The position numbers and the translations under genes are program-made. A stretch of DNA of 64,000 bases. It comes from a virus (taxonomy: Duplodnaviria > Heunggongvirae > Uroviricota > Caudoviricetes). Positions 4,751 to 62,846 of this stretch are shown in pieces; the first letter of the stretch is position 1, and every line of letters starts with the position of its first letter. The stretch is from IMG/VR virus record IMGVR_UViG_3300035492_000044, positions 46,179 through 110,178 of that record. One strand, 5' to 3'. Under the pieces are notes generated by a model. It did not search any database. It was given only the letters and a program-made list of their open reading frames with translations, and had not been told where the DNA came from.

Positions 4751-4784
4751 GGGATAGTGGAGAAATCTGCTATCCCTTTTCATA
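4751..4784 (+). terminator. rho-independent terminator
   Basis: GGGATAG..CTATCCC hairpin + TTTTCAT after the SbcCD-like gene. Confidence 0.6.
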
Positions 4785-4796
4785 TGCAAAAATAGA

Positions 4797-4845
4797 GGGC
4801 GCTTACAGACGTCTAAAGCCAGTTAGGTTGGAAGGGGAATTCCCC
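4797..4845 (+). promoter_or_regulatory. Class-A conserved motif GGGCGCTTA-N9-AAAGCCAGTTARGGTGGAAG + GC hairpin (GGGGAATTCCCC)
   Basis: One of 9 near-identical copies: 4797, 16567, 22254, 28440, 32177, 57580, 61978, 62336, 63742. All on + strand, 25-60 nt upstream of a start codon. Confidence 0.6.
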
Positions 4846-4885
4846 AAATCAAAGCCAGTAAAAGGAAATGATCTTGAAAAATAAC

Positions 4886-5038
4886 ATGGTTCCGTTTGAT
4901 GCATCTTCGGTTGAATTCCTTATCACCAGCTACGACCCATTCGCTGGTGTATTCAACTGCGTTGACTCGGAGTTCAATGAATTCCGGGTATTCAAATGCA
5001 AGACTACTGGTAACCTGTTTATGGAGAAGTCGGTATGA
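4886..5038 (+). CDS. small hypothetical protein (50 aa)
   Basis: ORF found by eye below the track's size cutoff; lies between class-A motif 4797 and the next gene; ATGA overlap with the following ORF. Confidence 0.3.
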   Translation: MVPFDASSVEFLITSYDPFAGVFNCVDSEFNEFRVFKCKTTGNLFMEKSV

Positions 5039-5196
5039 AATTCAAATCTGGTCAGTCTTTCAAATATAAGGACAGGTACTTCGAAGTACTTGAACTGAAC
5101 ACTAATGAAGGGGCCTACATTTGCCTGGACGACCAGGAGGTTGTAGTTACCTTCCTAGTGACTGACGAGTCCGAGATGGAATTAGTGGAAGACTAA
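5035..5196 (+). CDS. small hypothetical protein (53 aa)
   Basis: ORF found by eye; translationally coupled to the upstream small ORF. Confidence 0.3.
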   Translation: MKFKSGQSFKYKDRYFEVLELNTNEGAYICLDDQEVVVTFLVTDESEMELVED

Positions 5197-5198
5197 AA

Positions 5199-5243
5199 CG
5201 ACGTTTTCTCATGTCGAAACCCTGTTAGGGGGAACGGTTCCCT
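5199..5243 (+). promoter_or_regulatory. Class-B conserved motif CGACGTTT-N7-10-TCGAAACCCTGTTAGGGTGGAAG + hairpin
   Basis: One of ~16 copies: 31, 5199, 8954, 9112, 12165, 17377, 26218, 33032, 34478, 35896, 36155, 36319, 41503, 43638, 47890, 52466. Some are degenerate. Confidence 0.6.
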
Positions 5244-5270
5244 TCCCTCTAACGTGATTGCGAGGACACT

Positions 5271-8519: not shown

Positions 8520-8525
8520 TAAGTA

Positions 8526-8558
8526 GGGTGGGTGAAATATCCCACCCTATATTATTTT
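8526..8558 (+). terminator. rho-independent terminator (GGGTGGG..CCCACCC + TATATTATTTT)
   Basis: Hairpin + T-run after the topoisomerase genes. Confidence 0.65.
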
Positions 8559-8569
8559 GTAGGTGGCTC

Positions 8570-8938: not shown

Positions 8939-9172
8939 AAAGTACAATCAGACCGACGTTTTAATCGCTCGAAACCCTGTTGGGGTGGAGGGCGGGTAGT
9001 AGGCCCAAGTGCTCTAGGATGCTCAGGCATCCTAGCCTACTTAATACACTACCACTATCAGGAGAGGAAAATAGAGGATATACATGAAGAGTGCACTTAT
9101 GAAAAATAGTACGACGTTCATGTACCTCGAAACCCTGTTAGGGTGGATTCCCCAATCACTAGGACCCAATAA

Positions 9173-10174
9173 ATGAACAATCTGGATTTACGTGCAGTAG
9201 TATTGCCAAAGGCAATCATCGAGAAATTCCTGAGCATCGAGAAAGAAGTACTCGAGTCTGGCAATCTGGCATGGTCAGTCTACGACAAGAACTGGTGGAA
9301 TGATGGTGGCATCTTCCGTATCCCAGTATCCAGCAATTGCACTGGTCAACTACTGGTAGCTATGTACCACATAGCTAAGCACGGTATCAAAGCTCTAGTC
9401 TACCCGAAGAATACCTTCGAGGGAATCAAGACTACTTATCGTATGCTTCATGCATTCGGTATTCAGACATACCAAGTGGATATGGGTCTCAATAACACCA
9501 ATATCCCATCTGCGGAAGATATCCGTGAACTCACTGGCCATTTTATCGATGACGTGCTTCTGGTAGCTACCAACATTGGTGGCATGAAGTTCGACTACGA
9601 TACCAGCGATTACCTCCATGTAATGCTGGATGGTGCACATGCCCAGTTCCTGGAATATGAAGAAGACGAGAACTACGACTCGGTAGTATACAGCTTCTTC
9701 GCTACTAAGTCTACTCCGGTGGGAGAAGGTGGTCTCATCGCTACTCGTGATGAAGAAATGGCTGACTGGCTCATCCAGACCCTTATGTACGACAAGCCTC
9801 ACTTCAAGGCTCTAGGTCTGAACTTCCGTGTATCTACGGCCACCGCTCTGAAGATGCGTTACCTCCTAACTAGTGGGGAGTCTACCAGTACTCTTCTCGA
9901 GCACAGAGTTGATATTTGGCAGATGTATGCCAAAGTATGTACTGAACTTGGAGTGAGCTTTGTCAATCCTCGTTCTGGTACCATGAACGGGTATAAGTTC
10001 ATGATTACCGATCCTCGGATCACTGACATGGAATGCCTGACTACCAGTAAGGCATTCGAACTGTACCACAACGTCTGCCCGGCTACTTATCCTCAACTGT
10101 CTGAGCAACTGCCAGAACTGGAAAGAGTATTCCGCAGTATCATCACCAAGAATCTGGAGAAAGCTTCAGCATGA
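9173..10174 (+). CDS. DegT/DnrJ/EryC1-like PLP sugar aminotransferase (short form)
   Basis: 'SFFATKSTPVGEGGLIATRDEEMADWL' resembles the DegT 'SFHxxKxxxxGEGG' lysine region. Preceded by two class-B motifs. Confidence 0.5.
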   Translation: MNNLDLRAVVLPKAIIEKFLSIEKEVLESGNLAWSVYDKNWWNDGGIFRIPVSSNCTGQLLVAMYHIAKHGIKALVYPKNTFEGIKTTYRMLHAFGIQTYQVDMGLNNTNIPSAEDIRELTGHFIDDVLLVATNIGGMKFDYDTSDYLHVMLDGAHAQFLEYEEDENYDSVVYSFFATKSTPVGEGGLIATRDEEMADWLIQTLMYDKPHFKALGLNFRVSTATALKMRYLLTSGESTSTLLEHRVDIWQMYAKVCTELGVSFVNPRSGTMNGYKFMITDPRITDMECLTTSKAFELYHNVCPATYPQLSEQLPELERVFRSIITKNLEKASA

Positions 10175-11307
10175 GTCACATGAACCTCAACCAACAAATC
10201 CCAGCTCGTCCTGTTCGTGAGTTCGACAAAGTAGTTGTCGTTACTGGTGGATCGGGATTCATCGGAGGTGCATGTGTCAAGCTCCTCAATGAAGATCCAT
10301 GCGTTTCTGAGATCCGAATCCTGGACGTAGCATTCCCTGACTACGAACTGACTTCGAAGATGCGCTACTTCCGAGTAGACGTCAACGATCTGGCAACTCT
10401 TCTGAAGTACTCTGTCGATGCTGACGAGTGGATCGACAACGTAGGTCTGCTCGGCACTGGTGATACTCATGAACTGGGTAGCTATCCTGCGACAGCTCTG
10501 GCGACTAACGTCAATGGCTTCCTCAATCAGCTGGAAGCTGCGTACCTCAACGGTGTACCTCGCTTCTTCCACCAGACCAAGAATCGCTTCGATACTACCA
10601 ATGGTACTGAAGGTGGTCTGTCTGAAAACTGGTATACTGCTACTAAGAGTATGGCGGAGATCGCTGCATTCTGGGCACGTAAGAGTCGTCATCAGCAGGT
10701 AACTGTAGTTCGTTACCTCAATGCATCCGGTCGTCGTCAGCATCTGGGTCCAGTTCGTAAGCTGTTCCCTCTGGCAGTAGTCAACGCTATTCTGGACATC
10801 GACTTCACTGTCTACGGTGATGGTCAGCAACTGGCCGACTTCATTCATGTGGAAGACCTGGCTTCTGCAGCTATGACCTTCATGCGTGCCGATAGCATGG
10901 ACAAGCCTGTCCGTATGCTGGATATCGGTACTGGTCAAGCTATCAGTATTCTTGATCTGGTCACCAAGATCAAGCAGAAGATTCCTAGCAGCAAGTCTGC
11001 TATCCAGTTCCTCCCTATGCGTAAGGGTGAGAAAGAGAATACTCGCATCGAAGCTGATCTTCGTGACATCGAGGAGGCTCGCAGCTATGGCTGGGAATGC
11101 AAGTTCTCTGAAGAAGATGTGATCAACGACTACATCCAGTACTACCTGTCTGGAGATGTGGACTACACTTACATCTACAATACCATGGTCTACTTCCAAG
11201 AGACCTACAGCCCATTCACTTCCAATGGTCAACCAATCAACATCCGTGATATGGGTGTCGAAGGTGTCCGTCAGAAGTTCATCGAGAAGATGCAGAACGA
11301 TGGCTAA
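10171..11307 (+). CDS. NAD-dependent sugar epimerase/dehydratase (extended SDR)
   Basis: 'VTGGSGFIGG' Rossmann motif and 'YTATKSMAE' YxxxK. Confidence 0.8.
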   Translation: MSHMNLNQQIPARPVREFDKVVVVTGGSGFIGGACVKLLNEDPCVSEIRILDVAFPDYELTSKMRYFRVDVNDLATLLKYSVDADEWIDNVGLLGTGDTHELGSYPATALATNVNGFLNQLEAAYLNGVPRFFHQTKNRFDTTNGTEGGLSENWYTATKSMAEIAAFWARKSRHQQVTVVRYLNASGRRQHLGPVRKLFPLAVVNAILDIDFTVYGDGQQLADFIHVEDLASAAMTFMRADSMDKPVRMLDIGTGQAISILDLVTKIKQKIPSSKSAIQFLPMRKGEKENTRIEADLRDIEEARSYGWECKFSEEDVINDYIQYYLSGDVDYTYIYNTMVYFQETYSPFTSNGQPINIRDMGVEGVRQKFIEKMQNDG

Positions 11308-12172
11308 ATACGACGTAGTGCTGACAGGTTCTGATGGCTACATTGGGACCTATGTCAAGAATGCTCTTTCCACTATGGGTCTGAGTGTTCTCTGTGTTGA
11401 CCTCAAGTCAGGTCTTCACATGGCTGACGTCATGGGTGTATCTGCTAAGTGGTTGATCCACTTAGCAGCACTTATTGATGTTCGAGAGAGCCATGACAAG
11501 AACCATGCTTACTTCGACAATAACTGTGGCGCCTACTACGATCTGGTGATGAAGAATGGTAACACATTCGAAAATATCATCTATGCTTCGAGTGCTGCAG
11601 TTTATGACGACCACGGGAACATCAATCCTCAGTCTGTCTACGGGATGACTAAGCTTAATGGGGAATACATCACTAAGATGGCTTCTCCTACTAATCACCT
11701 AGTTCTCCGGTTCGCTAACCCAGTTGGAGTCAGCCCGGTTAGTACTCCTAAGATGGGTGATGGTCTATTCTTCAAACTGGCTCAAGCAGCCGTTGATGAG
11801 AAGGTCTTCTCCATCCACAACTCCGAACATATGAAGCGGGACTTCTTCCCGGTAATCTGGATTCCTCTTCTGATCTCTGCGGTCATTAAGGATGAGAACT
11901 TCAGCATGTTCGGTACTCATGACCTATGTAGCGGAAAGCTGGTCACTGTTCGCAGTGTCGTTGAAGCTCTCTGCGATCTTCATGAGATCGGGTACAAACT
12001 GGTAGCACCTCCCATCGGAACTCTGGAGAATGTGGAAGAGCGTGATTGCCCTATCCTCAACCAGTACCTGGATATCGTTTATCGTGGGTATGATCCAGTT
12101 GCATTTGTTACTGAGCAGTTCCCCAACTATCTCAAGTTAGCAGCTAAGATCGCTATCAAGTCCAGCGTTTAA
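11300..12172 (+). CDS. NAD-dependent epimerase/reductase family (SDR)
   Basis: 'LTGSDGYIGTYV' and 'YGMTKLNGEY' YxxxK; ATG overlaps the upstream stop. Confidence 0.7.
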   Translation: MAKYDVVLTGSDGYIGTYVKNALSTMGLSVLCVDLKSGLHMADVMGVSAKWLIHLAALIDVRESHDKNHAYFDNNCGAYYDLVMKNGNTFENIIYASSAAVYDDHGNINPQSVYGMTKLNGEYITKMASPTNHLVLRFANPVGVSPVSTPKMGDGLFFKLAQAAVDEKVFSIHNSEHMKRDFFPVIWIPLLISAVIKDENFSMFGTHDLCSGKLVTVRSVVEALCDLHEIGYKLVAPPIGTLENVEERDCPILNQYLDIVYRGYDPVAFVTEQFPNYLKLAAKIAIKSSV

Positions 12173-12191
12173 GTACGGCGAAAGCCTGTTA

Positions 12192-12226
12192 GGGTAATGG
12201 CGCGAATGTCATTACCCTATTTATTT
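12192..12226 (+). terminator. terminator-like hairpin GGGTAATG..CATTACCC + TATTTATTTC, fused to a degenerate class-B motif
   Basis: The hairpin begins at the GGGT of the motif's GTTAGGGT. Confidence 0.5.
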
Positions 12227-12242
12227 CTAGGAGATATGATTC

Positions 12243-16567: not shown

Positions 16568-16642
16568 GGCGCTTAGAGTACTGGAGAGCCAGTTAGGGTG
16601 GGAGGAGTTTCGGCTCCCTCACCCTTCTACTTAGGAGACATC

Positions 16643-17362: not shown

Positions 17363-17404
17363 AACGTGTAAAATCACGACGTTTAAGTCTCTTGAAAACC
17401 TGTT

Positions 17405-17436
17405 AGGGTAGGGGAACTCTTCCTCTACCCTATTTT
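17405..17436 (+). terminator. terminator-like hairpin GGGTAGGGGAA..TTCCTCTACCC + TATTTTTG, fused to class-B motif
   Basis: Hairpin + T-run immediately after the motif. Confidence 0.5.
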
Positions 17437-17451
17437 TGTGAGTAATTATTC

Positions 17452-22253: not shown

Positions 22254-22307
22254 GGGGCGCTTACAGACTGTAAAAGCCAGTTAAGGTGCGAGGGGCGAAC
22301 TGCCCCT
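22254..22307 (+). promoter_or_regulatory. Class-A motif copy + hairpin AGGGGCGAACTGCCCCT
   Basis: 'GGGGCGCTTACAGACTGTAAAAGCCAGTTAAGGTGCGAGGGGCGAACTGCCCCT' upstream of 22330. Confidence 0.6.
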
Positions 22308-22329
22308 TCTACCTACTTTGGAGATCCAC

Positions 22330-22656: not shown

Positions 22657-22717
22657 CCCTACGTGATCTAATGGGTGGAGAAATGTCCCTTCGCCCTATA
22701 CATAAGGAGATGCCCTC

Positions 22718-26164: not shown

Positions 26165-26286
26165 TTTAATGCTGGTACTCGATTTAGGGTACCAGCTTTT
26201 TATATGCCATTCATTCCAACGTCCAGATAAGTCGAAACCCTGTAAGGTCGGGGAAGGTCCTCCACTTAATTAGGAGTTTAATTAGT

Positions 26287-31947: not shown

Positions 31948-32111
31948 TAAGGAACTTCTGTGGACACTTACGAATTCAATGTACTGATGAAGAACGGCAC
32001 TCAGGACAAGGTACGTGCTACCGGTCATGACTATAAGTCGGCTCACCAGACTGCAAAGAATAGTAATAAGAAGATCGTGAAGATTATCTCCGGTCGCAAG
32101 ATGTAAGTATA

Positions 32112-32146
32112 GTCGGGAGTGGGAAACTGCTCCCGACTATTATTTT
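32112..32146 (+). terminator. rho-independent terminator (GTCGGGAG..CTCCCGAC + TATTATTTT)
   Basis: Hairpin + T-run. Confidence 0.65.
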
Positions 32147-32253
32147 GATATTCACTGAAAAATATTTTCAAATACAGGGGCGCTTACAGACTCCAAAAGC
32201 CAGTTAAAGTGGAAGGGCCGGTTGGCCGCAACTAAATAAACTGGAGCTAAATC

Positions 32254-37046: not shown

Positions 37047-37050
37047 TTAT

Positions 37051-39625: not shown

Positions 39626-39626
39626 T

Positions 39627-40638: not shown

Positions 40639-40932
40639 ATGAATAAGGTAGTTAGATTCCTTAATGCCATTCGTAGGTCACACCCAGATATGGTCGAGTT
40701 GTATACTCAGGGCCAATGCTACAACTTCCATCTTATCCTCCGAGAGGTCTTCCCAGATGCTGTTGCCTGGTATGACCCAGTTGAGGGCCATGTGTACTCC
40801 AAGATTGGAGACTGCTGGTACGATATAAGAGGAAGACATTTCAAACTGGATCCACGAGCTAGTATTCTGGATCATCGTATGTCCGACAAACCTCATCGCT
40901 GGGGTGGACGTGATAGAAGAAGACTAAGGTGA
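40639..40932 (+). CDS. hypothetical protein
   Basis: ORF. Confidence 0.4.
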   Translation: MNKVVRFLNAIRRSHPDMVELYTQGQCYNFHLILREVFPDAVAWYDPVEGHVYSKIGDCWYDIRGRHFKLDPRASILDHRMSDKPHRWGGRDRRRLR

Positions 40933-40935
40933 GTT

Positions 40936-41502: not shown

Positions 41503-41546
41503 CGACTTCCAGATAGTCCGAAACCCTGTTAGGGTGGAAGTCGGAA

Positions 41547-41888
41547 ATGGAGAGAGTTATGCTTGGTAAACCCATGAAGTCGATTAAGGTTCAATATGAG
41601 CCTGGCTGGAATGGTGGAACTTGGTCTGTAGTCAGTCGGAAGATTGATGCAGTATCTAAAGTCCACGATCTTCCTATGGATGTCAAGGTCAAGATACGGG
41701 GTATCCTAATCGACGCCTGTAAATCTACTCGAAAGGGTACTGACTATGACATGGGCCATCAGTACGACTGGGAATCCTGGGACCTGACTCTTAAGGTCAA
41801 GACTGAACTGGGTGTAATGGAGTTCAGTTTCTATGAGTATGCCCAGAAGCATCCTCGAGTCAAGACCTGGGAGATCTTCTACGAATAA
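41547..41888 (+). CDS. hypothetical protein
   Basis: ORF after class-B motif 41503. Confidence 0.4.
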   Translation: MERVMLGKPMKSIKVQYEPGWNGGTWSVVSRKIDAVSKVHDLPMDVKVKIRGILIDACKSTRKGTDYDMGHQYDWESWDLTLKVKTELGVMEFSFYEYAQKHPRVKTWEIFYE

Positions 41889-41966
41889 GGGCCTCTAGCA
41901 TAACTGGTAAATGCGTCCGGCTCATAACCGGAGGACAGATCGGTTCGAATCCGACGGGGCCCACCA
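41889..41966 (+). tRNA. tRNA-Met/Ile2 (anticodon CAT)
   Basis: Acceptor GGGCCTC/GGGGCCC, stem TCCGG/CCGGA with loop CTCATAA, GGTTCGAATCC T-arm, CCA. G1-C72 pair means it is not an initiator. Confidence 0.75.
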
Positions 41967-42484
41967 CACATCCTTGTCAAAAGTGCCTACTGGGAACAAA
42001 TAATCCAAGAGGCTGGAATGGCGTAATGGCCTACTGCACACATGTTGACCCGAATGTGTTAAGACATGAAATAATCGGGTCCTGAATCTAAATAACACGA
42101 GGTGTGTATTATGTTGCTAGCAGCCTACTGCGCTGCGGTGATTATGATGCATACTCAGATTCCAACGATAGACATCTGCACTGCGCCGTCTCTGTACGCC
42201 GCTCCTGATGTCATTCTGCGGAATATCGTGCAACCTGCCATAGTCAAATTATCCTCACCTGATAAGAAGACTATTGGTGTTTTCATAATCGACCTGACTA
42301 TCCCGGGACCTGTCGAGGTATTCCGGGACATGGCTAGACGGCCAACTAATAGTACGGATCGAATATGAAGCTCGGGTTGTCGCTGAGTGAGCAGCTAATC
42401 CCGCCAGCAAATTATCATGAAGGTCAGATACTTATCCCCCATATCCGTGTAGCTATGGCAGGGTGAGATAAGTCAGTGCCTAGT

Positions 42485-42510
42485 AAAAGCCCGCTCAGTG
42501 CGGGCTTTTA
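42485..42510 (+). terminator. rho-independent terminator (AAAAGCCCGC..GCGGGCTTTT)
   Basis: Perfect bidirectional-type hairpin flanked by A and T runs. Confidence 0.8.
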
Positions 42511-42688
42511 TGTAGTCATCATAGTAGTCCACTATCACACGTACTGACCATCTCTTCATCTCGAAGGTAGGTGCCGTTAGTAGAGTCGGACTAAGTAGCT
42601 CATTAATGAGACCACCGATTCCAGGAGTACCCATTGAATGGTACTTGATAGTGGACTCCTATGATGATTCCTACTGAGGAAGTGTAGT

Positions 42689-43581: not shown

Positions 43582-43590
43582 GTGAAGATA

Positions 43591-43626
43591 GGGTAGATTC
43601 CTCACGGGGTCTACCCTATTTATTTA
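43591..43626 (+). terminator. rho-independent terminator (GGGTAGA..TCTACCC + TATTTATTT)
   Basis: Hairpin + T-run after the dUTPase gene, immediately before class-B motif 43638. Confidence 0.65.
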
Positions 43627-43697
43627 CCTATTTATTCCGACGTTTATGTGCTTCGAAACCCTGTTAGGGTGTAGGTTGTTCAACGTGAGGTATAACC

Positions 43698-47186: not shown

Positions 47187-47903
47187 ATGAGTAAGATACT
47201 TGAGATAGCTCTTAAGTCAAAGATATGCAGACCATCGAAGAAGGTGGTGGATGACTACAAGCCATGGGGCATCTCCATCACCCAAACGATGAATTGCATG
47301 AGGTTCAACTGGATTAACTACAATCGACCTAAGGAGATTGATGGGTACGAATTCGTCTACATGAAGGATGACCCTTACAACTACTCTGGTTCGCTGATTG
47401 TAGGTATGGGGTACTGTGTTGAGAATATTGTGGCAGAGTTCCTCAAGGAGTCTGGCATCTTCATCTCCACTCAGGATAAGGTCCGGGACCTAGGTAACAA
47501 GTGGAGAGGTAACCTCGACTACCTAGTCAATCTCAAGCCATGGGGTTATGGTATTGGTGACTGTAAGGGTATGTCAGAGAGGAAGTTCCAGGGATTCCTG
47601 GAGAGACCACTCAAAGAGGTTATGTTCGACTACTACGTCCAGTTGACCTCTTACATCCACATCATGGATGTACCGTACGGATTCATCGTTGGAGTAAACC
47701 GAAGTAATGGCAAGGTAGAAGTACGTGTCATTACTAAGGAAGAGACCAAGGATGACTTCCTGTTCTATCGTGGTCGAGTCAAGCAGACCCTAGATGCTCA
47801 GAGTGTGTACGATCTCCCTATCGAGGAAGATAAGTGCCATGGGTGCAGTAATGTACCTTTCTGTCATCGAGGTAAGCCTGAATTGATTGCGACGTTCACG
47901 TAA
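47187..47903 (+). CDS. Cas4/RecB-like PD-(D/E)xK nuclease with Cys cluster
   Basis: 'LDYLVN..IGDCKG' (D..DxK) and 'YYVQLTSY' (QxxxY). One N-terminal Cys plus C-terminal 'CHGCSNVPFCH' (Fe-S-like). Confidence 0.5.
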   Translation: MSKILEIALKSKICRPSKKVVDDYKPWGISITQTMNCMRFNWINYNRPKEIDGYEFVYMKDDPYNYSGSLIVGMGYCVENIVAEFLKESGIFISTQDKVRDLGNKWRGNLDYLVNLKPWGYGIGDCKGMSERKFQGFLERPLKEVMFDYYVQLTSYIHIMDVPYGFIVGVNRSNGKVEVRVITKEETKDDFLFYRGRVKQTLDAQSVYDLPIEEDKCHGCSNVPFCHRGKPELIATFT

Positions 47904-47950
47904 CTCGAGAACCTGTTAGGGTGTTGGAAGACACCCTACTGGAGGTATGT

Positions 47951-52465: not shown

Positions 52466-52503
52466 CGACGTTTTACTGTCTCGAAACCCTGTTAGGTTGG
52501 AGC
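52466..52503 (+). promoter_or_regulatory. Class-B motif copy upstream of the DNA polymerase gene
   Basis: 'CGACGTTTTACTGTCTCGAAACCCTGTTAGGTTGGAGCAG'. Confidence 0.6.
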
Positions 52504-52525: not shown

Positions 52526-55500
52526 ATGAAGTTAATCACTGAACCATCGAAGAGTAAGTATGCTGTCGTAGGTATCGGTCTGGGGCAGAGTGAGGGTGCA
52601 TTCTCCACTGATGCTGGCGACATGATGCGAGCTATCTTCCTCTCCCAGACCGTCTTCCCGCACTATGTAGAACTCCGTAAGGATAACTTCGATGACGAAG
52701 AAATTCCTGATGAGCTAAAGTCTGCTGTTTATTCGTATCTGGCAGACAACGGTATCGAGAAAGTCATCCTACTGGGTTCTCAGACTGCACGGCAGCTAGC
52801 ACCTAGTCTTACTGCCAAGTCCACTATCGCTAAGCTCAACAGTATGCCATTCCTAGGCGTACAAGAGTTTACTGCACAGGCAGCAGTGATCCACCATCCT
52901 CGATTCGTAGTGCATGCACTGAAGAATAACCCTGACTCCGAGATCGAGTATTCCAATCGTATTCAAGGTCTACTGAAGCACACACCTCAAGCCTACAATA
53001 TCCACATCAATAGTATCTCGATCGATGGACTGATATCGGATATCCTACCATGGCTACTCAATAACTATCGAGGCAAGATAGGGGTAGACTTCGAGACTAA
53101 TGGAGAGGAGATCTGGCATAAGGACTTCAAGATCACCCTATTCAGTCTATCGATGAAGGATGACGATGGATCCCACATTACATGGTGGATACCTGTAACG
53201 GGTAATGAGACCGAATGGGAATTAGAACAGCTGCGCTCATTCTTTTTGGGAACTAAGGATAGGCTGTGGGCATTCAACTGTCCATTCGAGATGAAGGTAT
53301 TCTGGCGATGGCTAGGAGTATTTATCGGGATCAACGACTCGATGGTACTGATCACGATGGAGTCCTCGCGTAGTAGCTTGAAGGACGCAGTACGTCGTCA
53401 CCTAGCATCAGACTTCTGGGAAGCTGAAGTACACGAGCAGCTGAACGCATTCTCAGCTACCTTTAAGCAGATGACCAAGATGATTAAGGGTCAACCTGAA
53501 CTCATCGAGACTCTTCGTAATGGTGGATATCCTGCCATGGAAGAGATTCAGCACAACGAGAGTCTGCAATTCATCCGTGAAAACCACGAGGATATTCTCG
53601 AGGATTACGGTATTGAAGAACTAGCACGATGCATTACTGGATACCCGTATCACTGGGCGGCAGTTCCCCACGAGATTCTGGGACCATACTGCTGTCGTGA
53701 CTCGGCGTACGGTGTAATCCTAGCTGAGAAGTTCGAAGACAAGTTCCGTGATGGATATCCGGTGTATATCCGCCATCCATGGCTTGCAACAGTGTTCGAA
53801 TCGTATGGAATCACCTACGATCGTGATGTTTCCTATGAGGAACAGAACAAATTCACTCAAGAAATGATCGCGTCGCTGAACCTAATCATCCAAGACTTGG
53901 ACATTCCGATTGAGTCAAAGATGAAGGCTAACGACATCCTGTCATGGAACCTTCCGCATACGATCGTGTCATATACCGAGAAGACCAAGAAGGAGAAGCG
54001 TAGGGTCATTAAGGATGAAGGTGATCGTCACGAAGAACTGAAGGGTATCTTCAATCCTGCGAGTAACCATAGTACTACTCGGGATATGTTCTGGAACCAC
54101 TATCTTGATGAAAGTATCGAGATGGCAACTATTCTGTGGGCATTCGTAACCGAATTGCGTAATCGGGATATCTGGCCTGAAGTATTGAAGAACTTGAGTA
54201 CCTTCAGTACCGAGGAAGAGTTCCTTAGGTCCAAGCCTGCTGATGAAATGATGGATTCCCTTATTGGGCTAATGCAGCAGCATCAGGGCAAAATATTCGG
54301 TATCGATATTCAGAACTGTCTGGTCGAGGCTACGAACAACTACAAGGAGCTTTATACTGGTCGATTTGCACGTGATGTAATGGAAGCTCAGTACAAGGTC
54401 CACACTTACTTCTTCGGCGTCAATGTCGACGATAAGTCAACGTGGAATCCTAAGTTCGAGCTACTGTTCAACCTGCATAAGTGGAAGAAGCTAGCTAAGA
54501 CGGTAAGTACTTACATCACGGGTTCTATCGGCCGTGACTCAGTCTACCTGTCTAAGTACGATCCCAAGGACATTACTAAACCGCCAATTCGGATAGCTAA
54601 GGCTGACCTCCTGCCTCTGGATTACCAATTGAAGGAGGATGAGTGCTGGGTATTCAACGTAGGGTTCAACTCTCTATCGGCGATTACTCATCGTTGGTCA
54701 TCGGGAGCACATACGATCCCTTCGGGATCATCAGTAAGACGCATGCTCATTCCGCGTAATCCTGACGGTGTGTGGTTCCATGCTGACTTCAGTCAGGCTG
54801 AACTAGTTATCCTATCGTTCTTCAGTCAAGACCCGAAGATGCTTCAGGTATTCTTGTCTGGTGGTGACATGCACCGTTATGTTGCTAGCCAGGTATTCAA
54901 GAAGCCCGAAGATGAGGTTACTAGTGAGGAGCGACGTGGAGCTAAGGCAGTATCGTTCGGTATTATTTACGGTAAGTCCATTGAATCTACTGCGGTAGAG
55001 ATCTTCGGTGGTGACGTAGGTCGTACTCAAGCGATGTTCGATGCATTCTTCCTCCAGTTCCCTGGTATTAAGGTCTGGATGGAGGAGCGTTACAAGGAGG
55101 TCGATACTCACGGTAAGGTAACCAACATGTTTGGTGCACTTATCCAGGTTGAGACTGACGCGCCAGGTAACGCTAAGTACCGTCAAGGCTGCAACTATCC
55201 GATTCAGTCATCAAGTAGCATGCTTGCTGGTACTTCCATGTGGAACTTGCATGAGCACTGCCAGACGATTGATCTGACTCAGCTGTCTCACAACTTCACC
55301 CATGACGCCCTCGATTCTGAGTGCGAAGTAAGAAGGATATTCGACTACACCAAAGCTCTGCGATTCAAGATGCAGGACGAGTTGTATGAGCAGCTTGGTG
55401 CACCTATGCGTATTGACCACGAGGTAGGTATTAACTGCTTCCACATCTGCGGTATTGGAGATATCGAGGAGACCCCTGACGGGATCAAATTCGAGCTTGA

Positions 55501-55702
55501 AGGCACTCAAGAGGCAGTTGATCTTCTTCTGGACAAGATGAATAAGCATAGTCCATGGGTAGTTGACAGTACCGAGATCGTTAAGACTAAGGAACTGTAC
55601 ACTAGCTGGGATGAGATGTTCACTACCAAGTCAGCTTACAAGAGCTACTGGGGTGTTACTCAGACCAAGATCGTTGCACATATTCAACTGAAGAATAAGT
55701 GA
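52526..55702 (+). CDS. Family A DNA polymerase with 3'-5' exonuclease and an N-terminal UDG-like domain
   Basis: Motif A 'HADFSQAELVIL', motif B 'RRGAKAVSFGIIYGKS', motif C 'THDALDSE', Exo I 'GVDFETNG'. N-terminal 'VVGIGLGQSEGAFSTDAGDMMRAIF ... VIHHPRF' loosely resembles family-4 UDG motifs. Confidence 0.9.
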   Translation: MKLITEPSKSKYAVVGIGLGQSEGAFSTDAGDMMRAIFLSQTVFPHYVELRKDNFDDEEIPDELKSAVYSYLADNGIEKVILLGSQTARQLAPSLTAKSTIAKLNSMPFLGVQEFTAQAAVIHHPRFVVHALKNNPDSEIEYSNRIQGLLKHTPQAYNIHINSISIDGLISDILPWLLNNYRGKIGVDFETNGEEIWHKDFKITLFSLSMKDDDGSHITWWIPVTGNETEWELEQLRSFFLGTKDRLWAFNCPFEMKVFWRWLGVFIGINDSMVLITMESSRSSLKDAVRRHLASDFWEAEVHEQLNAFSATFKQMTKMIKGQPELIETLRNGGYPAMEEIQHNESLQFIRENHEDILEDYGIEELARCITGYPYHWAAVPHEILGPYCCRDSAYGVILAEKFEDKFRDGYPVYIRHPWLATVFESYGITYDRDVSYEEQNKFTQEMIASLNLIIQDLDIPIESKMKANDILSWNLPHTIVSYTEKTKKEKRRVIKDEGDRHEELKGIFNPASNHSTTRDMFWNHYLDESIEMATILWAFVTELRNRDIWPEVLKNLSTFSTEEEFLRSKPADEMMDSLIGLMQQHQGKIFGIDIQNCLVEATNNYKELYTGRFARDVMEAQYKVHTYFFGVNVDDKSTWNPKFELLFNLHKWKKLAKTVSTYITGSIGRDSVYLSKYDPKDITKPPIRIAKADLLPLDYQLKEDECWVFNVGFNSLSAITHRWSSGAHTIPSGSSVRRMLIPRNPDGVWFHADFSQAELVILSFFSQDPKMLQVFLSGGDMHRYVASQVFKKPEDEVTSEERRGAKAVSFGIIYGKSIESTAVEIFGGDVGRTQAMFDAFFLQFPGIKVWMEERYKEVDTHGKVTNMFGALIQVETDAPGNAKYRQGCNYPIQSSSSMLAGTSMWNLHEHCQTIDLTQLSHNFTHDALDSECEVRRIFDYTKALRFKMQDELYEQLGAPMRIDHEVGINCFHICGIGDIEETPDGIKFELEGTQEAVDLLLDKMNKHSPWVVDSTEIVKTKELYTSWDEMFTTKSAYKSYWGVTQTKIVAHIQLKNK

Positions 55703-56974: not shown

Positions 56975-57024
56975 AATGGAGAGGGGTGAGTTAATACCCA
57001 CCCCTCTCTTACGAGAACTTAGAT

Positions 57025-57486: not shown

Positions 57487-57645
57487 TTCTCTGGGTATCA
57501 GTGTTGAGTACTCAGAGATTCGGAGGATAAATTATTTTTCTGAAATACGAAAAATACTTTATCTATTCGTGGTTTTTCAGGGCGCTTACAGACTGTTAAA
57601 GCCAGTTAGTTTGGCCTTGGAGGCCTAACCTCTTGCAATAAGGCA

Positions 57646-58239: not shown

Positions 58240-59694
58240 ATGCGTCCTGTACTTAAGATCAAACTTATGTCAGACAGCAATATTAAGTCTGTCAGTTCTG
58301 GGGAAATTGAGTCCTACCGTCTGTACAACTTCAAGTACAAGACACCTCGCCCAGTACCGGGTGGTCTATTCTGCGAGAAGATCTTTGGTCCTATCCAGGA
58401 TTACACCTGTGCCTGCGGTATCCGTCACTCTATTGCCTTGAAAGTATGCGAGACCTGCGGTGTGCCTATTCTTAGTGCACGTGAACGCCGTAATCGTATG
58501 GGGCATATCAATTGTCGCCTCCCCTACCTAAATCCAATTGCCTCTGACCTAGTCGGCGGTATCTTCGGAGTTAGTGGTAAGGCTCTCCTCGATGTGGCAG
58601 TAGGTACCTCGCGGTACTACATAGAGGAGGCAGCTGGTTCAGGTCCATTGATCAGTTCGAGCGGTGTGCGTTATCGCATTCAAATCGTAGGTAAGGAAGA
58701 TCCTGAGTGGGAGAACTCCGATTACTCGATTTACTCGCTTCTCTCTGACCTGATTGACCTGGACATTAGTGGTGAGGAGACACTCTCCAAGCACAAAAAT
58801 CCTGATGTTCGTCGGTATTATGAAAACGGGTTCACTTCGGTCCTGAATTTCTTCAATACCTCAGTTCTTGTTCCGCCACCTCTCCACCGAGATATCTCCA
58901 TCTCGAATGGTGAGATTTCGTATCACCCCACTAATATCCTCTACCTTCGACTCATTCGAGTAGCTCATCGATTCCAGGTTATTATGGAATCGGAGAACGA
59001 GGATATGTTGGTTCTACTCCGTGAAGAAGCTCGAGTTCTCCAGCATCTGGTGAATTCAGTTTACACTGAAGGAGCTAAGGACCATCGCGGTAACGCTATC
59101 CCAGCCATTATGGACAAACTGGGAGGTAAAGAGGGTCTGTTTCGTGGTAATATGCTAGGCAAGCGTATTGACTACTCCGGACGTTCCTCGATTACTACAG
59201 GTCCCGATCTCCCGATTGATACCTGCGCTGTACCGTTCAAAATGATGTACACTCTGCTTGAACCCCATATCCTCGGAAGGCTAGTTACTCTGGCAGAAGA
59301 GCGATTCAATGGGGAGGCTAATCCGTACACTGTGGCTTCTCGTTGGTATAAGAGGCAGACCACTGAGGCGGTTGAAGCCTGCTATGACCTTGCCAAGGAG
59401 GCTATTGTAATCCTTAACCGAGCTCCATCGCTCCATCGCTATTCGGTAATGGGATTTAAGGTAGTTCTTCACTCTGGTAAGAGTATCCGGATACCTCCGC
59501 TAATCTGCTCCCCATTCAACGCAGACCATGATGGCGACACCATGGCGATTCACCTGCCGTTGTCTAAGCAGGCACTAGCTGAGTTCCCTCTGTATTCGGT
59601 TCAGCATAATCTGATGAGTTCTATCGATTATGACACCCCGAATATGTCTCCGTCCCACGAGGCTGTAGTGGGTCTGTACCAGCTCACCCTGTGA
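58240..59694 (+). CDS. Multisubunit RNA polymerase beta' subunit, N-terminal half
   Basis: Zn-binding 'DYTCACGIRHS..CETCGV', 'ARERRNRMGHINCRLPYLNPI' (vs 'RRERMGHIELASPTAHIW'), catalytic 'NADHDGDTMAIHLPLS' (vs 'NADFDGDQMAVHVPLT'). Confidence 0.9.
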   Translation: MRPVLKIKLMSDSNIKSVSSGEIESYRLYNFKYKTPRPVPGGLFCEKIFGPIQDYTCACGIRHSIALKVCETCGVPILSARERRNRMGHINCRLPYLNPIASDLVGGIFGVSGKALLDVAVGTSRYYIEEAAGSGPLISSSGVRYRIQIVGKEDPEWENSDYSIYSLLSDLIDLDISGEETLSKHKNPDVRRYYENGFTSVLNFFNTSVLVPPPLHRDISISNGEISYHPTNILYLRLIRVAHRFQVIMESENEDMLVLLREEARVLQHLVNSVYTEGAKDHRGNAIPAIMDKLGGKEGLFRGNMLGKRIDYSGRSSITTGPDLPIDTCAVPFKMMYTLLEPHILGRLVTLAEERFNGEANPYTVASRWYKRQTTEAVEACYDLAKEAIVILNRAPSLHRYSVMGFKVVLHSGKSIRIPPLICSPFNADHDGDTMAIHLPLSKQALAEFPLYSVQHNLMSSIDYDTPNMSPSHEAVVGLYQLTL

Positions 59695-59775: not shown

Positions 59776-61299
59776 ATGCTGGTAAATAACGTTCATTATT
59801 TCAACAATCCTCAAGCAATTCACGAAGCGTATGAGAACGGGTTGATTACTTACCATACCGAGGTTAAGTATAAGTTCCGGGACACTACTGAGTGGGTTGA
59901 CATTACTTATGGGCGATTCCTGATCTGGGAATTCACTGGGTACCTCCCAGAGGGTGCCCTTAGTAAGAAGGGTGTGAAGAATCTCGTTATCCACATTAAC
60001 CGGGAGTACAGCCCTGAAGTAGCTGTTAAGAAGATGAAACAGCTACAAGATCTGGCTTTCAAGATCGCCACTGAGAAGGGAATTACCCTTGGGATGGACG
60101 ACTTCCACCCAATGCCTGGTACTAACGAGATCATGGCAGAAGAGCAGGTCCGTATCTCGGCTCTTCCTATCGAAGAGCGAGCTGAAGAGTGGGATACCGT
60201 TATTAACGGCCAGGTAGATCGCTGGATTAACGAGGTCGATCGAAATAACCCTCTCTACGCCATGTACCAGTCAGGTGCTCGAGTAACTCCCTCCCAGATA
60301 CGCCAGATGGTTGTTGGTAAGGGTCTTCTCACTAAGATGAACGGTGAGATTAACCCGGATGCAGTTACTCAGTCTCTGGCAACAGGACTTAGTGTGTACA
60401 ATTACTTCATGACATGTGGGCCTGCTCGGAGAGGTCTGGCTAACAACTTCTTCGTAGTTCCTGCCTCTGGATACTTCGCACGGCAGCTGGTTAATGCTGC
60501 GCGTGACCTTACCATCGTAGAAGAGGACTGCGGTACTCGAGAGGGGGTAGAGGTCAAGTCGAAATACGCAGTAGGTCGCTACCTTGCAGGTACATCCGAA
60601 CTCTGGACTAAGGACAGCAAGACTGACATGCCTTACCTCAAGGTGAGGAGTCCTCTTACCTGCTCCTCTGTTCTAGGTGGACTCTGCGCTAAGTGCTGTG
60701 GACAGGATCCTGCCACTAACGAGGATTGGAGAGTAGGTTTCGGTATGGGGACAGCGTCGGCTCAGCATATCTCGGAACCAGCTACTCAGGCCGGTCTACG
60801 TGGTAAGCATACCTCAGGTTCGGTTACTCTGGCGGATTACCGTAACTCGGTTGATAACGTACTTCCGAACATCATCAGGGCTTTCGGTGGTATCGGTACT
60901 CAGTTCGTAACTACTGAGGGAGCTACTTCGAAGACCCTATACGACTTCAGCAAGACTGAGAAGGATCCTATTACTGCAGCTGAGAAGCTCTGCCAGCACA
61001 TTAAGGACCTGTTCGTGGAGGGTGGTCTGGGTGTAGCTAGCATCCACATCGAGGTAATTATTCGCTCCTGTATTGAGCAGGTAATTAAGAAAGATGGTGA
61101 AGTAGGTCTTCGGTCTCATGGAGATGAGGGCCGAATCAAGTGCCTCAACGTGAGTCAGGTTCCTCTTAATTACCCGAGCTGGCTGAAGTCTATCAGCTTC
61201 GGCTACACCTCCAGCCGACTCCGTAAGGCAGTATGCCGGATGGAGAAGACTTACGGCGTAATGACGGAGCAGATTATGACAACTGCGTTCCAACACTAA
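59776..61299 (+). CDS. Multisubunit RNA polymerase beta' subunit, C-terminal half
   Basis: 'VPASGYFARQLVNAARDLTIVEEDCGT' (vs '[26 protein letters not shown]') and trigger-loop 'SEPATQAGLRGKHTSG' (vs 'GEPGTQLTMRTFHIGG'). Confidence 0.85.
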   Translation: MLVNNVHYFNNPQAIHEAYENGLITYHTEVKYKFRDTTEWVDITYGRFLIWEFTGYLPEGALSKKGVKNLVIHINREYSPEVAVKKMKQLQDLAFKIATEKGITLGMDDFHPMPGTNEIMAEEQVRISALPIEERAEEWDTVINGQVDRWINEVDRNNPLYAMYQSGARVTPSQIRQMVVGKGLLTKMNGEINPDAVTQSLATGLSVYNYFMTCGPARRGLANNFFVVPASGYFARQLVNAARDLTIVEEDCGTREGVEVKSKYAVGRYLAGTSELWTKDSKTDMPYLKVRSPLTCSSVLGGLCAKCCGQDPATNEDWRVGFGMGTASAQHISEPATQAGLRGKHTSGSVTLADYRNSVDNVLPNIIRAFGGIGTQFVTTEGATSKTLYDFSKTEKDPITAAEKLCQHIKDLFVEGGLGVASIHIEVIIRSCIEQVIKKDGEVGLRSHGDEGRIKCLNVSQVPLNYPSWLKSISFGYTSSRLRKAVCRMEKTYGVMTEQIMTTAFQH

Positions 61300-61312: not shown

Positions 61313-61978
61313 ATGTCCGGTCGAGTTTACAACATAGCTAAACTCACCAGTTCTCCCTCGAAGATATTCTTCGAGGGAGATATTTTAATATCTGGTGATA
61401 GTCTAACGGTTAGGAGTAAGAATCTGGAGTCAGATGTATTTGCTAACTCACGTAGAGGCCGGAATGTTAATCTCCGAGTCACTGAGGAAGCATGCGTAAG
61501 ACTACTCCAGACATTTGATAATCCTCAATATCCATATAACGATTTCATCTGCTATTCCATACTCACAGTTAAGAAGATAAGGCTATCGAGTTACAGAGAG
61601 GTTGCTCATGACCTTAAGTATCTAGATCTTCTTCTGATGAAGCCAGGTATAACGAACATCGTTACTAGAATCTGCCATCAATTTGACGTTATACTTACAG
61701 ACTACCCCACTCTGATTGGTAAGACACAGTCGAAGATAATTGATCTTAATAAGGTATCCCTAGATGGAATTCCTCTTCCTAAGGTCAGATCCCGAGATAT
61801 TCTAGTAGAGAAGAATATTATGCAGGAGATAAACAACCAGACTAATGCTGGGATAAATCACAGGCATAAAGTTCTAGTACTGCTATATGACAATCAGTTA
61901 GTGGCCCATGATATATCTATGTTCGATAGACATAAGATTCTACCTTGTACACTCCTGAAATATCCAGGGTGTATTTAG
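61313..61978 (+). CDS. hypothetical protein
   Basis: ORF directly downstream of the beta' genes. Confidence 0.4.
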   Translation: MSGRVYNIAKLTSSPSKIFFEGDILISGDSLTVRSKNLESDVFANSRRGRNVNLRVTEEACVRLLQTFDNPQYPYNDFICYSILTVKKIRLSSYREVAHDLKYLDLLLMKPGITNIVTRICHQFDVILTDYPTLIGKTQSKIIDLNKVSLDGIPLPKVRSRDILVEKNIMQEINNQTNAGINHRHKVLVLLYDNQLVAHDISMFDRHKILPCTLLKYPGCI

Positions 61979-62053
61979 GGGCGCTTACAGAGCTCTAAAG
62001 CCAGTTAAGGTGAGGGGGAAGTTCCCCAGACTTCTGTTTAGGTGGAGAAAATT

Positions 62054-62317
62054 ATGTTTCGTGAACGTGATGAAGGTTTTACTTACGCACCCACTCTCAC
62101 TTCTGAGAAGGGTCGAGTGACTCTTACTTGGGACCATTCCGACAACATGTACTACGTTTTCGTACATGGTGAGGATGAAAATCCTCGAGCTTACCGGAAT
62201 ATCCTTGATAGCATTATCGGAGCCAAGGCTGCTGCAGATCACCTTCTGGACTCGTTCAGTCAGGTTGATATGGAGAAGTTTATTGACTTCCGAGTCGGTC
62301 ATCCTCACGCAGCGTAA
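62054..62317 (+). CDS. hypothetical protein
   Basis: ORF after class-A motif 61978; RBS 'aggtggag'. Confidence 0.4.
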   Translation: MFRERDEGFTYAPTLTSEKGRVTLTWDHSDNMYYVFVHGEDENPRAYRNILDSIIGAKAAADHLLDSFSQVDMEKFIDFRVGHPHAA

Positions 62318-62335
62318 AAATAATTTGCTGTTTGA

Positions 62336-62392
62336 GGGCGCTTAGAACGTCCAAAAGCCAGTTAAAGTGGAAGGGCGGACTTACCGCTTTCC
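62336..62392 (+). promoter_or_regulatory. Class-A motif copy + hairpin
   Basis: 'GGGCGCTTAGAACGTCCAAAAGCCAGTTAAAGTGGAAGGGCGGACTTACCGCTTTCC' upstream of 62419. Confidence 0.6.
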
Positions 62393-62418
62393 TTTAGTAC
62401 TTACTTAGGAGAAACATC

Positions 62419-62799
62419 ATGGTTGCTGCAACTACTACCCCGAAGAAGAAAAACACCACTAAGCCGATGGGTGCTAAGGCCCGGTCTTTCCTGAATCAGG
62501 TGGCTGAGACCGTAGAGTCCAAGTCCAAGACAGCGGCTACTGAGGAGCTCTTCACCGGCCAGAAGCAGGAGGAGGCTCCTGTAGCTCCGGTAGCTGCTCC
62601 GTCGGTTACTGAGGAAATGGCCAAGAAAGGTCTTCAGTGCTGGGCCTGGATCGAAGAGCACAGTAAGTACTACCGTGCTCGAATCACTGAAGTGGTGGAA
62701 CCTGGTAAGTACAACGTGATCTACCGTGACTTCAAGGCAACTGTCGGCCTGGATGACCTCCAGCTGGAGAAGCCGAGTAATCTCAAGGCTAAGGCCTGA
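62419..62799 (+). CDS. small basic protein (Lys-rich N-terminus)
   Basis: After class-A motif 62336; 'TTTPKKKNTTKPMGAKAR'. Confidence 0.45.
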   Translation: MVAATTTPKKKNTTKPMGAKARSFLNQVAETVESKSKTAATEELFTGQKQEEAPVAPVAAPSVTEEMAKKGLQCWAWIEEHSKYYRARITEVVEPGKYNVIYRDFKATVGLDDLQLEKPSNLKAKA

Positions 62800-62811
62800 T
62801 TCAAATCCCTA

Positions 62812-62846
62812 GGGTGAGTGTACTTTGTGTACTCACCCTATTTTTG
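62812..62846 (+). terminator. rho-independent terminator (GGGTGAGTGTAC..GTACTCACCC + TATTTTTG)
   Basis: Hairpin + T-run. Confidence 0.7.

Follow-up and report, generated by a model that had tools for sequence, protein, structure and literature searches.

Putative intrinsic terminators whose stem base matches the 3' end of a candidate promoter in an uncharacterized phage with its own multisubunit RNA polymerase

Why do a set of intergenic hairpins in one phage genome close on the same six base pairs, and why is one side of that stem base also the 3' end of a recurring intergenic motif? The question is raised by a 64,000-nucleotide (nt) stretch (referred to here as the window) of the Caudoviricetes record IMGVR_UViG_3300035492_000044 (positions 46,179 to 110,178), which belongs to an uncharacterized phage encoding its own multisubunit RNA polymerase (RNAP). 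All substantial open reading frames (ORFs) of the window lie on the plus strand. An earlier note on this DNA had listed at least eight intrinsic terminators whose stems end in ACCC followed by TATTT, and had proposed that some of them are fused to the motif. The reading that we favor, with moderate confidence, is that the hairpins are intrinsic terminators with a lineage-specific stem base, TAGGGTR/YACCCTA, and that at some junctions the TAGGGT of a promoter is reused as the 5' arm of the terminator, with the start of transcription lying inside the stem.

An unbiased hairpin scan of the plus strand, together with consensus terminator scans, returned roughly twelve strong hairpins followed by T-rich tails. 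By stem base, six hairpins form the core of the family and three are degenerate members, as follows.

8524..8562, + strand: core member; TAGGGTGGG...CCCACCCTA then TATTATTTTG; -18.9 kcal/mol, z score -4.4; 4 nt past the stop codon of the topoisomerase II small-subunit gene; the next gene, at 8570, has no promoter motif
12190..12229, + strand: core member, fused; TAGGGTAATGGC...GTCATTACCCTA then TTTATTTC; -18.0 kcal/mol; a class-B motif (see below) provides the 5' arm with its 3' end
17404..17439, + strand: core member, fused; TAGGGTAGGGGAA...TTCCTCTACCCTA then TTTTTGTG; -20.2 kcal/mol
43589..43637, + strand: core member; (GA)TAGGGTAGATTCC...GGGGTCTACCCTA then TTTATTT; -24 kcal/mol, z score -5.9; 7 nt past a stop codon
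52416..52452, + strand: core member by its stem; ATGGGTAGCC...GGCCTACCCTA; tail TTACTGTG, a poor T run; -14.3 kcal/mol; 6 nt past a stop codon
62810..62847, + strand: core member; TAGGGTGAGTGTAC...GTACTCACCCTA then TTTTTGTG; -18.8 kcal/mol, z score -5.4; 10 nt past a stop codon; the next gene, at 62869 (PolX-like), has no promoter motif ahead of it
47917..47938, + strand: degenerate member, fused; TAGGGTGT...ACACCCTA then directly CTGGAGG (ribosome-binding site); no T tail; -14.1 kcal/mol
16594..16634, + strand: degenerate member, fused; AGGGTGGGAGGAG...CTCCCTCACCCT then TCTACTT (tail TTCTACTT); -21 kcal/mol
22673..22707, + strand: degenerate member; GGGTGGAG...CTTCGCCC then TATACATAAGG; ends GCCC-TATACAT; intergenic, weak tail

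The family lies far above chance expectation. ACCCTATTT is present in exactly four copies, all on the plus strand (12214, 17427, 43613, and 62835), where 0.39 are expected and the shuffle maximum is 2. The pattern TAGGGT-N6-32-ACCCTA occurs six times (8524, 12190, 17404, 43589, 47917, and 62810), whereas 500 dinucleotide-pool shuffles gave 0.096 on average and never more than 2, and GGGT-N6-32-ACCCTAT has seven matches (in six hairpins) on the plus strand and one on the minus strand (expected, 0.34). TAGGGT alone is not enriched genome-wide (20 observed versus 16.5 expected); its copies are clustered in the motif and the hairpins. The tails described in the earlier note do mark a real family, but its count of at least eight was too high. 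The hairpin that it placed at 32112 is a good terminator, but the stem ends in CCCGAC followed by TATTATTTT, and the one at 4751 ends in TATCCC followed by TTTTCATATG (TTTTC). The stems listed at 8526 and 52418 both end in ACCC; the former belongs to the core and runs into TATATTATTTT, while the latter is followed by TATTACTG, which has no T run.

Family hairpins fold at -14 to -24 kcal/mol (z scores of -4.0 to -5.9), and none of 200 shuffles was as stable. The stems are short (9 to 16 bp) and nearly perfect, with loops of 3 to 8 nt. Counted from the base, stem pairs 1 to 6 are invariant (T-A, A-T, G-C, G-C, G-C, T-A), pair 7 is A-T or G-C, and the deeper pairs vary in every copy while pairing is kept. 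As these interior changes are compensatory, it is the structure that is conserved, and the hairpins are not plain duplicates; stem interiors and loops share no similarity among members. All members are located on the coding strand, 4 to 41 nt past a stop codon and 12 to 81 nt ahead of the next start codon. Five of them (8524, 12190, 17404, 43589, and 62810) have at least six T's among the first nine bases after the last G-C pair. A stable G+C-rich stem-loop closed by G-C pairs, a T-rich tail in these five members, and a coding-strand position at the end of a transcription unit, just after a stop codon and usually before the next candidate promoter, fit the anatomy of intrinsic (Rho-independent) terminators, here with a lineage-specific conserved stem base. 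On this point the sequence agrees with the earlier note.

A role in RNA stability or maturation was considered as well, in which the hairpins protect mRNA 3' ends or are endonuclease processing sites and do not release RNA. Hairpins 52416 and 47917 combine the family stem with the lack of a U-tract, and read-through must occur at 8524 and 62810 because the genes at 8570 and 62869 follow without promoters of their own. However, four of the six core members have five or six T's in the first eight or nine tail bases, and the helices, which are perfect over 9 to 16 bp, differ from those of RNase III sites such as the R sites of T7, which are long (about 20 bp or more) and interrupted by internal loops. 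Likewise, Rfam gave no match in the window besides the tRNAs and the transfer-messenger RNA (tmRNA). Judged from sequence, protection or processing in place of RNA release is very unlikely.

The TAGGGT of the stem base is also found at the end of a second element. A bipartite intergenic motif of about 38 nt is present in about 25 copies, all on the plus strand and 20 to 55 nt 5' of start codons, and GTTAGGGT is its 3' end. Class B (about 16 copies) reads CGACGTT-N9-CGAAAMCCTGTTAGGGTG, and class A (about nine copies) reads GGGCGCTTACAGAC-N5-AAAGCCAGTTARNKTG. Both share the core CC(T/A)GTTA-NNN-TG, in detail GTTA-[GA]-[GAT]-[GT]-T-G, with conservation ending after T-G or T-G-G. It is class B, the phage's main candidate promoter motif, whose 3' end is the TAGGGT of the terminator stem base. 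This class precedes replication and nucleotide-metabolism genes and tRNAs, and class A precedes the operon of the RNAP beta' subunit, among others. Example copies and those next to family hairpins are given below.

4799-4830, 9112-9145, 22257-22288, 28443-28474, 32180-32211, 35896-35929, + strand: example copies of the motif
36155-36188, 41503-41536, 57582-57613, 62338-62369, 63745-63776, + strand: further example copies
12163..12196, + strand: class-B motif CAGCGTTTAAGTACGGCGAAAGCCTGTTAGGGTA; the upstream half overlaps the stop codon of the gene at 11156-12172, and the core has a final TA in place of the TG of other copies
16569-16600, + strand: class-A-like motif fused to hairpin 16594
17377..17410, + strand: class-B motif CGACGTTTAAGTCTCTTGAAAACCTGTTAGGGTA; provides the 5' arm of hairpin 17404
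43638..43671, + strand: class-B motif directly 3' of terminator 43589, in tandem terminator-then-promoter order
47890-47923, + strand: class-B motif fused to hairpin 47917
52466..52499, + strand: class-B motif 3' of hairpin 52416 and 5' of the DNA polymerase gene

In the form AAA-S-S-C-W-GTTA-NNN-TG, the motif core recurs in three relatives that share 35 to 50% protein identity with the window phage: Acinetobacter phage Ab1-TPeters (versions ...CC(T/A)GTTAAATTGT and GCTGTTTAAAGTG), Escherichia coli phage EP_H11 (OP688485, here L057; CGAAAGGCTGTTAAGGTG and related forms), and the metagenomic contig L053 (AAAGCGAGTTCTTTTGG and CTAAAAGGCTGTTAAGGTG). Sites resembling sigma-70 promoters are about 2 standard deviations rarer in the window than in shuffles (18 versus 30.6, 23 versus 32.5, and 21 versus 33.6 per 20-kb block), which is consistent with transcription independent of the host RNAP. 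From the position and strand of the motif, its clade-wide core, and the scarcity of sigma-70-like sites, we infer that it is a promoter of the phage RNAP, classes A and B probably being two promoter classes of that enzyme. The idea that the core ACCCTGTTAGGGT forms a small hairpin of its own was rejected; by inspection, copies with AACCT, AGCCT, or GCCA show no co-variation with GGGT or GGTT.

The perfect 6-bp inverted repeat TAGGGT...ACCCTA might also be read as DNA, either as the duplex site of a dimeric phage regulator or as an N4-type cruciform promoter, and the RNAP of the related phage YerA41 is virion-associated, as it is in N4. A dimeric protein would need a fixed half-site spacing and would leave the interior free, whereas the distance from TAGGGT to ACCCTA varies between 10 and 19 nt and the interior is always self-complementary. 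In N4, every promoter has a stem of 5 to 7 bp and a 3-nt loop at a fixed position. Most motif copies in the window lack a core hairpin, so the hairpin is not a general promoter requirement, and the T tails are strand-specific. An operator or cruciform is accordingly the explanation to which we give least credence, as it is extremely improbable.

In the family hairpins 12190 and 17404, both of which have a good T tail, the 5' arm consists of the TAGGGT of a class-B motif. The stem does begin inside GTTAGGGT (at 12188 and 17402), at the TA two bases ahead of the GGGT in which the earlier note had put its start. Overlaps beyond those that it listed are found at 47917 (no T tail) and 16594 (class-A-like motif, TCTACTT tail) and, more loosely, at 22284, 5221, and 57605. 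A class-B motif adjoins or overlaps four family members. Overall, a hairpin covers the core in only about six or seven of the approximately 25 motif copies.

In AR9 (A-11ACA-6N-T-1 R+1) and phiKZ (T-3ATG+1), whose multisubunit RNAPs are the two phage enzymes of this kind with mapped late promoters, the conserved element runs to the start site (PMC7598289). By analogy, and because conservation within the clade ends at T-G and gives way to variable G+C-rich sequence, we place the start at, or immediately past, the motif's terminal T-G/A; in the fused hairpins, this position would be inside the stem. RNA from 12196 onward is predicted to fold at -7.4 kcal/mol (-18.0 kcal/mol for the full hairpin) and RNA from 17410 onward at -6.6 kcal/mol with a z score of -0.01 (-20.2 kcal/mol for the full hairpin), and the residual stem is separated from the U-tract by the six bases ACCCUA. 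As these shortened RNAs are weakly folded and their stem is held away from the U-tract, RNA born at the fused promoter should not terminate.

For multisubunit RNAPs in general, the termination signal is a hairpin with a U-tract behind it. In the mechanism that we propose, the nascent RNA would fold into a 9- to 16-bp hairpin closed by G-C pairs, and the three C's and the UA at the base of its stem would run into the U-rich tail UAUUU[A/U]UU, giving the classical release signal of a hairpin plus a weak hybrid. In short intergenic gaps, the promoter's own TAGGGT would serve as the 5' arm of the terminator. RNA arriving from upstream would then hold the whole hairpin and be released, while RNA from the fused promoter, lacking the UAGGGU arm, would form no terminator and would be extended into the gene. 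The A-interrupted U-tracts, together with the promoterless genes behind hairpins 8524 and 62810, suggest that termination is partial.

Alternatively, the fused hairpins at 12190 and 17404 (and also at 16594 and 47917) could be 5'-leader structures of the transcript that starts at the fused promoter itself, either a stabilizing 5'-terminal stem-loop or a promoter-proximal attenuator that yields a short RNA, and would then not terminate upstream transcription. Indeed, 42 termination sites of phiKZ lie in 5' untranslated regions (5'UTRs) just past promoters and produce short RNAs (PMC10914365), terminators of 201phi2-1 directly follow promoters (PMC11512511), and in the window phage and its relatives, a G+C-rich hairpin, then a pyrimidine-rich segment, and then a ribosome-binding site come after many copies of the motif. 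However, as the 5' arm of the fused hairpins is the conserved core, a leader would require a start upstream of a segment that is conserved clade-wide to its final T-G. Of the hairpins associated with the motif, most of the strongest start at +1 to +5 of GTTAGG; for the weaker ones of ordinary leader type, the start is mostly at +7 to +14. Furthermore, the same type of hairpin occurs promoter-free, right past stop codons.

The relatives provide a further argument. A composite in L053 (794-819) combines a 5' arm that begins in ...GTTAAGGTG with the tail ATTTTCT. The same arrangement is found in EP_H11 (L057 303-336), in the corresponding place of the genome behind the thymidylate synthase gene. 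At L057 17907-17947 of EP_H11, the whole promoter core GGCTGTTAAC is the 5' arm of a hairpin of -28 kcal/mol, followed by UAUUUUUAUUU. At L057 3856-3915, a hairpin of -33 kcal/mol encloses the entire promoter and is followed by UUUAUUUUU; its 3' arm starts at the presumed start site. A leader cannot contain an untranscribed promoter, and these enclosing hairpins thus favor a terminator of the upstream transcript that overlaps the promoter over a leader or attenuator. Judged from sequence, distant relatives show the composite design independently and in various registers, and it is clade-wide. This strengthens the earlier proposal that the fused units act as terminator plus promoter, which is plausible. 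A leader role for the fused hairpins is in our view unlikely.

Two observations on the same regions may be added. In the EP_H11 hairpin at 3856-3915, the upstream half of the motif, TTTAGCGGCCT, pairs with the core AGGCTGTTAAA, and this pairing is nested in an outer 9-bp stem. In the window, a pyrimidine-rich leader element, (C)TACTTA/T, recurs just 5' of the ribosome-binding site and 3' of motif-associated hairpins (16625-16642, 22314-22329, 28495-28520, 33112-33135, and 62395-62418).

Two explanations bear on the six fixed pairs. First, the UAGGGU/ACCCUA base and the UAUUU tail could be a sequence-specific signal for the phage RNAP or for a termination or antitermination factor, possibly coupling release to re-initiation. 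The six pairs are invariant while the rest of the stem varies freely, the promoter motif ends in the same hexamer, and sequence-conserved terminators are also known from phiKZ-type phages. Family members moreover go with class-B promoters, and the terminators ahead of class-A motifs (4750 and 32109) are outside the family. Against a signal, the base is missing from at least four terminator-like hairpins of equal strength on this strand.

1054..1099, + strand: non-family terminator-like hairpin; ATGGGAGAGC...GCTCTCCCAT then TTTATTT
4750..4787, + strand: non-family terminator-like hairpin; AGGGATAG...CTATCCCT then TTTCATATG; a class-A motif is next, at 4799
26168..26209, + strand: non-family terminator-like hairpin; GCTGGTAC...GTACCAGC then TTTTTATATG; a degenerate class-B motif is next
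32109..32150, + strand: non-family terminator-like hairpin; ATAGTCGGGAG...CTCCCGACTAT then TATTTTG; a class-A motif is next, at 32180

Terminator scans of relatives with homologous RNAPs also found no common stem base, and together with these four hairpins this indicates that the polymerase does not generally require the base. Relatives show no significant enrichment of CCTATTT, and a scan of ten proteins encoded around the RNAP genes with PHROGs and Pfam revealed no sigma-like or antiterminator-like protein. The dedicated termination/antitermination logic suggested in the earlier note thus finds no support, and a sequence-specific signal appears quite unlikely. The same doubt applies to a more specific form, in which UAGGGU/ACCCUA is read by the RNAP or a promoter-specificity subunit at both the promoter start region and the terminator, so that termination hands the enzyme to the adjacent or overlapping promoter. 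If true, this would be a terminator-promoter junction element that recycles a noncanonical RNAP along heavily thymidine-modified DNA. CCTATTT as a clade-wide tail signal was dropped; it is sporadic in the relatives' terminators, and its enrichment is weak and inconsistent (five copies in L052 versus a mean of 2.9 and a shuffle maximum of 7; five in L053 versus a mean of 0.86 and a shuffle maximum of 3, most of them away from terminator tails; none in L054).

Second, the shared base could reflect common descent or recombination of a promoter-terminator cassette and have no function of its own, which would be compatible with termination at these hairpins. The cassette would have been copied by duplication or illegitimate recombination, as has reportedly been proposed for T4-type promoter-stem-loop cassettes. 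At 43613-43638, the 3' arm and tail of terminator 43589 are duplicated in tandem (ACCCTATTTATT then ACCTATTTATT), directly before a class-B motif. The base is lineage-specific, and TAGGGT, which has no genome-wide enrichment, is clustered in motifs and hairpins. As the stem interiors and loops are dissimilar, however, any duplication must be old or the six pairs must have been kept by selection. Moreover, no remnant of a promoter upstream half was seen 5' of the free terminators 8524, 43589, and 62810, where, by eye only, the sequence is coding and its similarity to the motif is at chance level. We rate descent without function as unlikely. Descent from a common promoter-terminator unit and any functional reason are nonetheless equally likely accounts of why the free-standing terminators carry the base.

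Several points weigh against intrinsic termination with a reused promoter end. The invariant TAGGGT of four free-standing terminators has no functional explanation and could be due to shared descent, and the base is absent from the terminators of relatives. The U-tracts are broken by A and weak by E. coli standards, and no U-tract follows the stem at 52416 (TATTACTG) or 47917 (CTGGAGG), so that some members may not act as terminators. The analogy used to place the start site involves RNAPs that are only about 30% identical. In relatives, G+C-rich hairpins and U-rich leaders come after many motifs without overlapping the core, which keeps a leader role a live alternative for the fused units. 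Finally, the literature searched contained no promoter or terminator map or description for the clade to which the phage belongs. Nevertheless, the anatomy, statistics, position and strand bias, and compensatory stem changes of the family and the composite design in relatives are all directly observed, and it is on these that intrinsic termination with a reused promoter end is preferred. That the motif is a promoter, that transcription starts at its end, that 3' ends fall at the hairpins, and which polymerase would respond to them are presumptions built on those observations.

The window phage is a member of the RP13/YerA41/SP-15-like group, characterized by hypermodified thymidine and an own multisubunit RNAP. 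Its nearest relatives, at 29 to 44% protein identity, are Acinetobacter phage Ab1-TPeters, E. coli phages EP_H11 and IME392, Ralstonia phage RP13, and Rhizobium RHph phages. The literature assigns these phages to that group and has shown the RNAP subunits of YerA41 to be virion-associated. The RNAP beta' subunit is encoded in two halves (58240-59694 and 59776-61299), and the closest homologue of its C-terminal subunit has 55% identity. Further genes of the window specify an SbcC-like nuclease, the two topoisomerase II subunits, ribonucleotide reductase, a helicase, and an A-family DNA polymerase. The latter (1058 amino acids [aa], 52526-55702) is closest to polymerases of the same group, and three sugar-nucleotide enzyme genes at 9173-12172 (a DegT/DnrJ/EryC1 aminotransferase, an NAD-dependent epimerase/dehydratase, and an RmlD-like reductase) are consistent with the glycosylated thymidine hypermodification described for it. 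Megablast found no nucleotide-level match among deposited phage records, protein-seeded scans of viral contigs found no close relatives, and the 31-nt promoter pattern had no match in viral or metagenome contigs; a 15-mer scan for close relatives returned single-match loci only, consistent with chance, and look-ups of exact proteins led only to pieces of the same phage from a single sample. Across these nucleotide, protein-seeded, pattern, and 15-mer searches, no genome of >80% identity was found for testing orthologous terminators.

RNA genes of the window comprise eight tRNAs and one tmRNA. The tRNA cluster at 36060-41966 encodes Leu, Arg, Gly, Asn, Leu, Thr, Ser, and Met tRNAs, with class-B motifs scattered among them (35921, 36180, and 36344), and the tmRNA, at approximately 37807-38241, matches the Rfam permuted-tmRNA and beta-tmRNA models. 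Three further hairpins were recorded. In the noncoding stretch past tRNA-Met, AAAAGCCCGC...GCGGGCTTTTAT (42483-42511) has the form of a typical bacterial bidirectional terminator, unlike the phage type. A strong terminator-like hairpin at 61352-61380 (TCTCCCTCGAAG...CTTCGAGGGAGA then TATTTTAAT, -21.8 kcal/mol) lies inside a gene, covering codons 14 to 23 of the 221-aa ORF 61313-61978; in all relatives, this ORF comes after the beta' gene, and the N terminus of the window version aligns with theirs. On the minus strand, a 13-bp G+C-rich hairpin at 56979-57008 has a T-containing tail (CATTTTAC) on the noncoding strand and no T tail on the plus strand, and might block antisense transcription.

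If the start site is placed correctly, the composite would be a minimal insulator of about 60 nt that stops incoming transcription and starts new transcription without terminating its own product. Such an insulator would be a useful part for synthetic biology and a probe of termination by a noncanonical RNAP. The window offers a testable grammar, consisting of a bipartite candidate promoter, a sequence-conserved terminator family, and a composite in which the core is the 5' arm. As the composite design is also present in EP_H11, a cultivable E. coli phage, the model can be tested directly.

Compared with known systems, the family resembles bacterial Rho-independent terminators in its G+C-rich stem-loop, the immediate U-rich tract, the location past stop codons, and strand specificity. 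It differs from them in that the U-tract mostly has an A as its second base (UAUUU...), a matching UA on the upstream side pulls the UA into the stem, and six base pairs are fixed in sequence. The T4-type promoter-early stem-loop (PeSL) cassettes, reportedly described by Arbiol et al. in 2010, are likewise said to be repeated intergenic units of promoter plus stem-loop and possible recombination substrates. They are said to use host sigma-70 early promoters and to flank small orphan genes in hyperplastic regions, whereas the window motif is not sigma-70-like and the window units flank replication and nucleotide-metabolism genes.

The late promoters of the AR9 and phiKZ non-virion RNAPs share with the window motif a conserved element that reaches the start site, a likeness used here only to place that site (PMC7598289). 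They are short, whereas the window motif is bipartite, about 38 nt long, unrelated in sequence, and equipped with two alternative upstream halves; the AR9 RNAP reads the template strand of uracil-containing DNA (PMC7598289). Overlapping or coupled terminator-promoter elements have been described in bacteria (bioRxiv 10.64898/2026.08.19.745784). These elements and the premature 5'UTR terminators of phiKZ resemble the window units in bringing the termination and initiation signals of adjacent transcription units within a few tens of bases. The fused units of the window may differ from the bacterial elements in that the conserved 3' core of the promoter is the 5' arm of the terminator and the presumed start lies inside the hairpin.

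The closest parallels are phiKZ, with 61 experimentally mapped intrinsic terminators sharing one common motif that ends in TTAT (PMC10914365), and 201phi2-1, with five mapped terminator motifs and some terminators just past promoters (PMC11512511). Like the window phage, both have their own multisubunit RNAP and many terminators that share a sequence motif and structure, some of them beside promoters. Sequence-conserved terminators and terminators near promoters are thus established for phages with multisubunit RNAPs. Tails are T-rich and interrupted by A in phiKZ (...YTTATKYYGT) as in the window phage (TATTTATTT, TTATTTTGT, and TATTTTTGTG). However, the 5' arm is C-rich in phiKZ (CCYCCCC...GGGRRGG) and G-rich here (TAGGGTR), and the phiKZ motif BCCYCCCCHWWDGGGRRGGBYTTATKYYGT has no match in the window even with up to 3 mismatches. 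The window elements would work like those of phiKZ but do not belong to them by sequence. The 3' ends of phiKZ were mapped experimentally, whereas the window hairpins are known from their sequence, and no identity between stem base and promoter 3' end has been reported for phiKZ. What the window adds to these systems is a clade for which no transcription signals were found in the literature, a terminator stem base identical to the 3' end of the candidate promoter, and a probable start site inside the stem.

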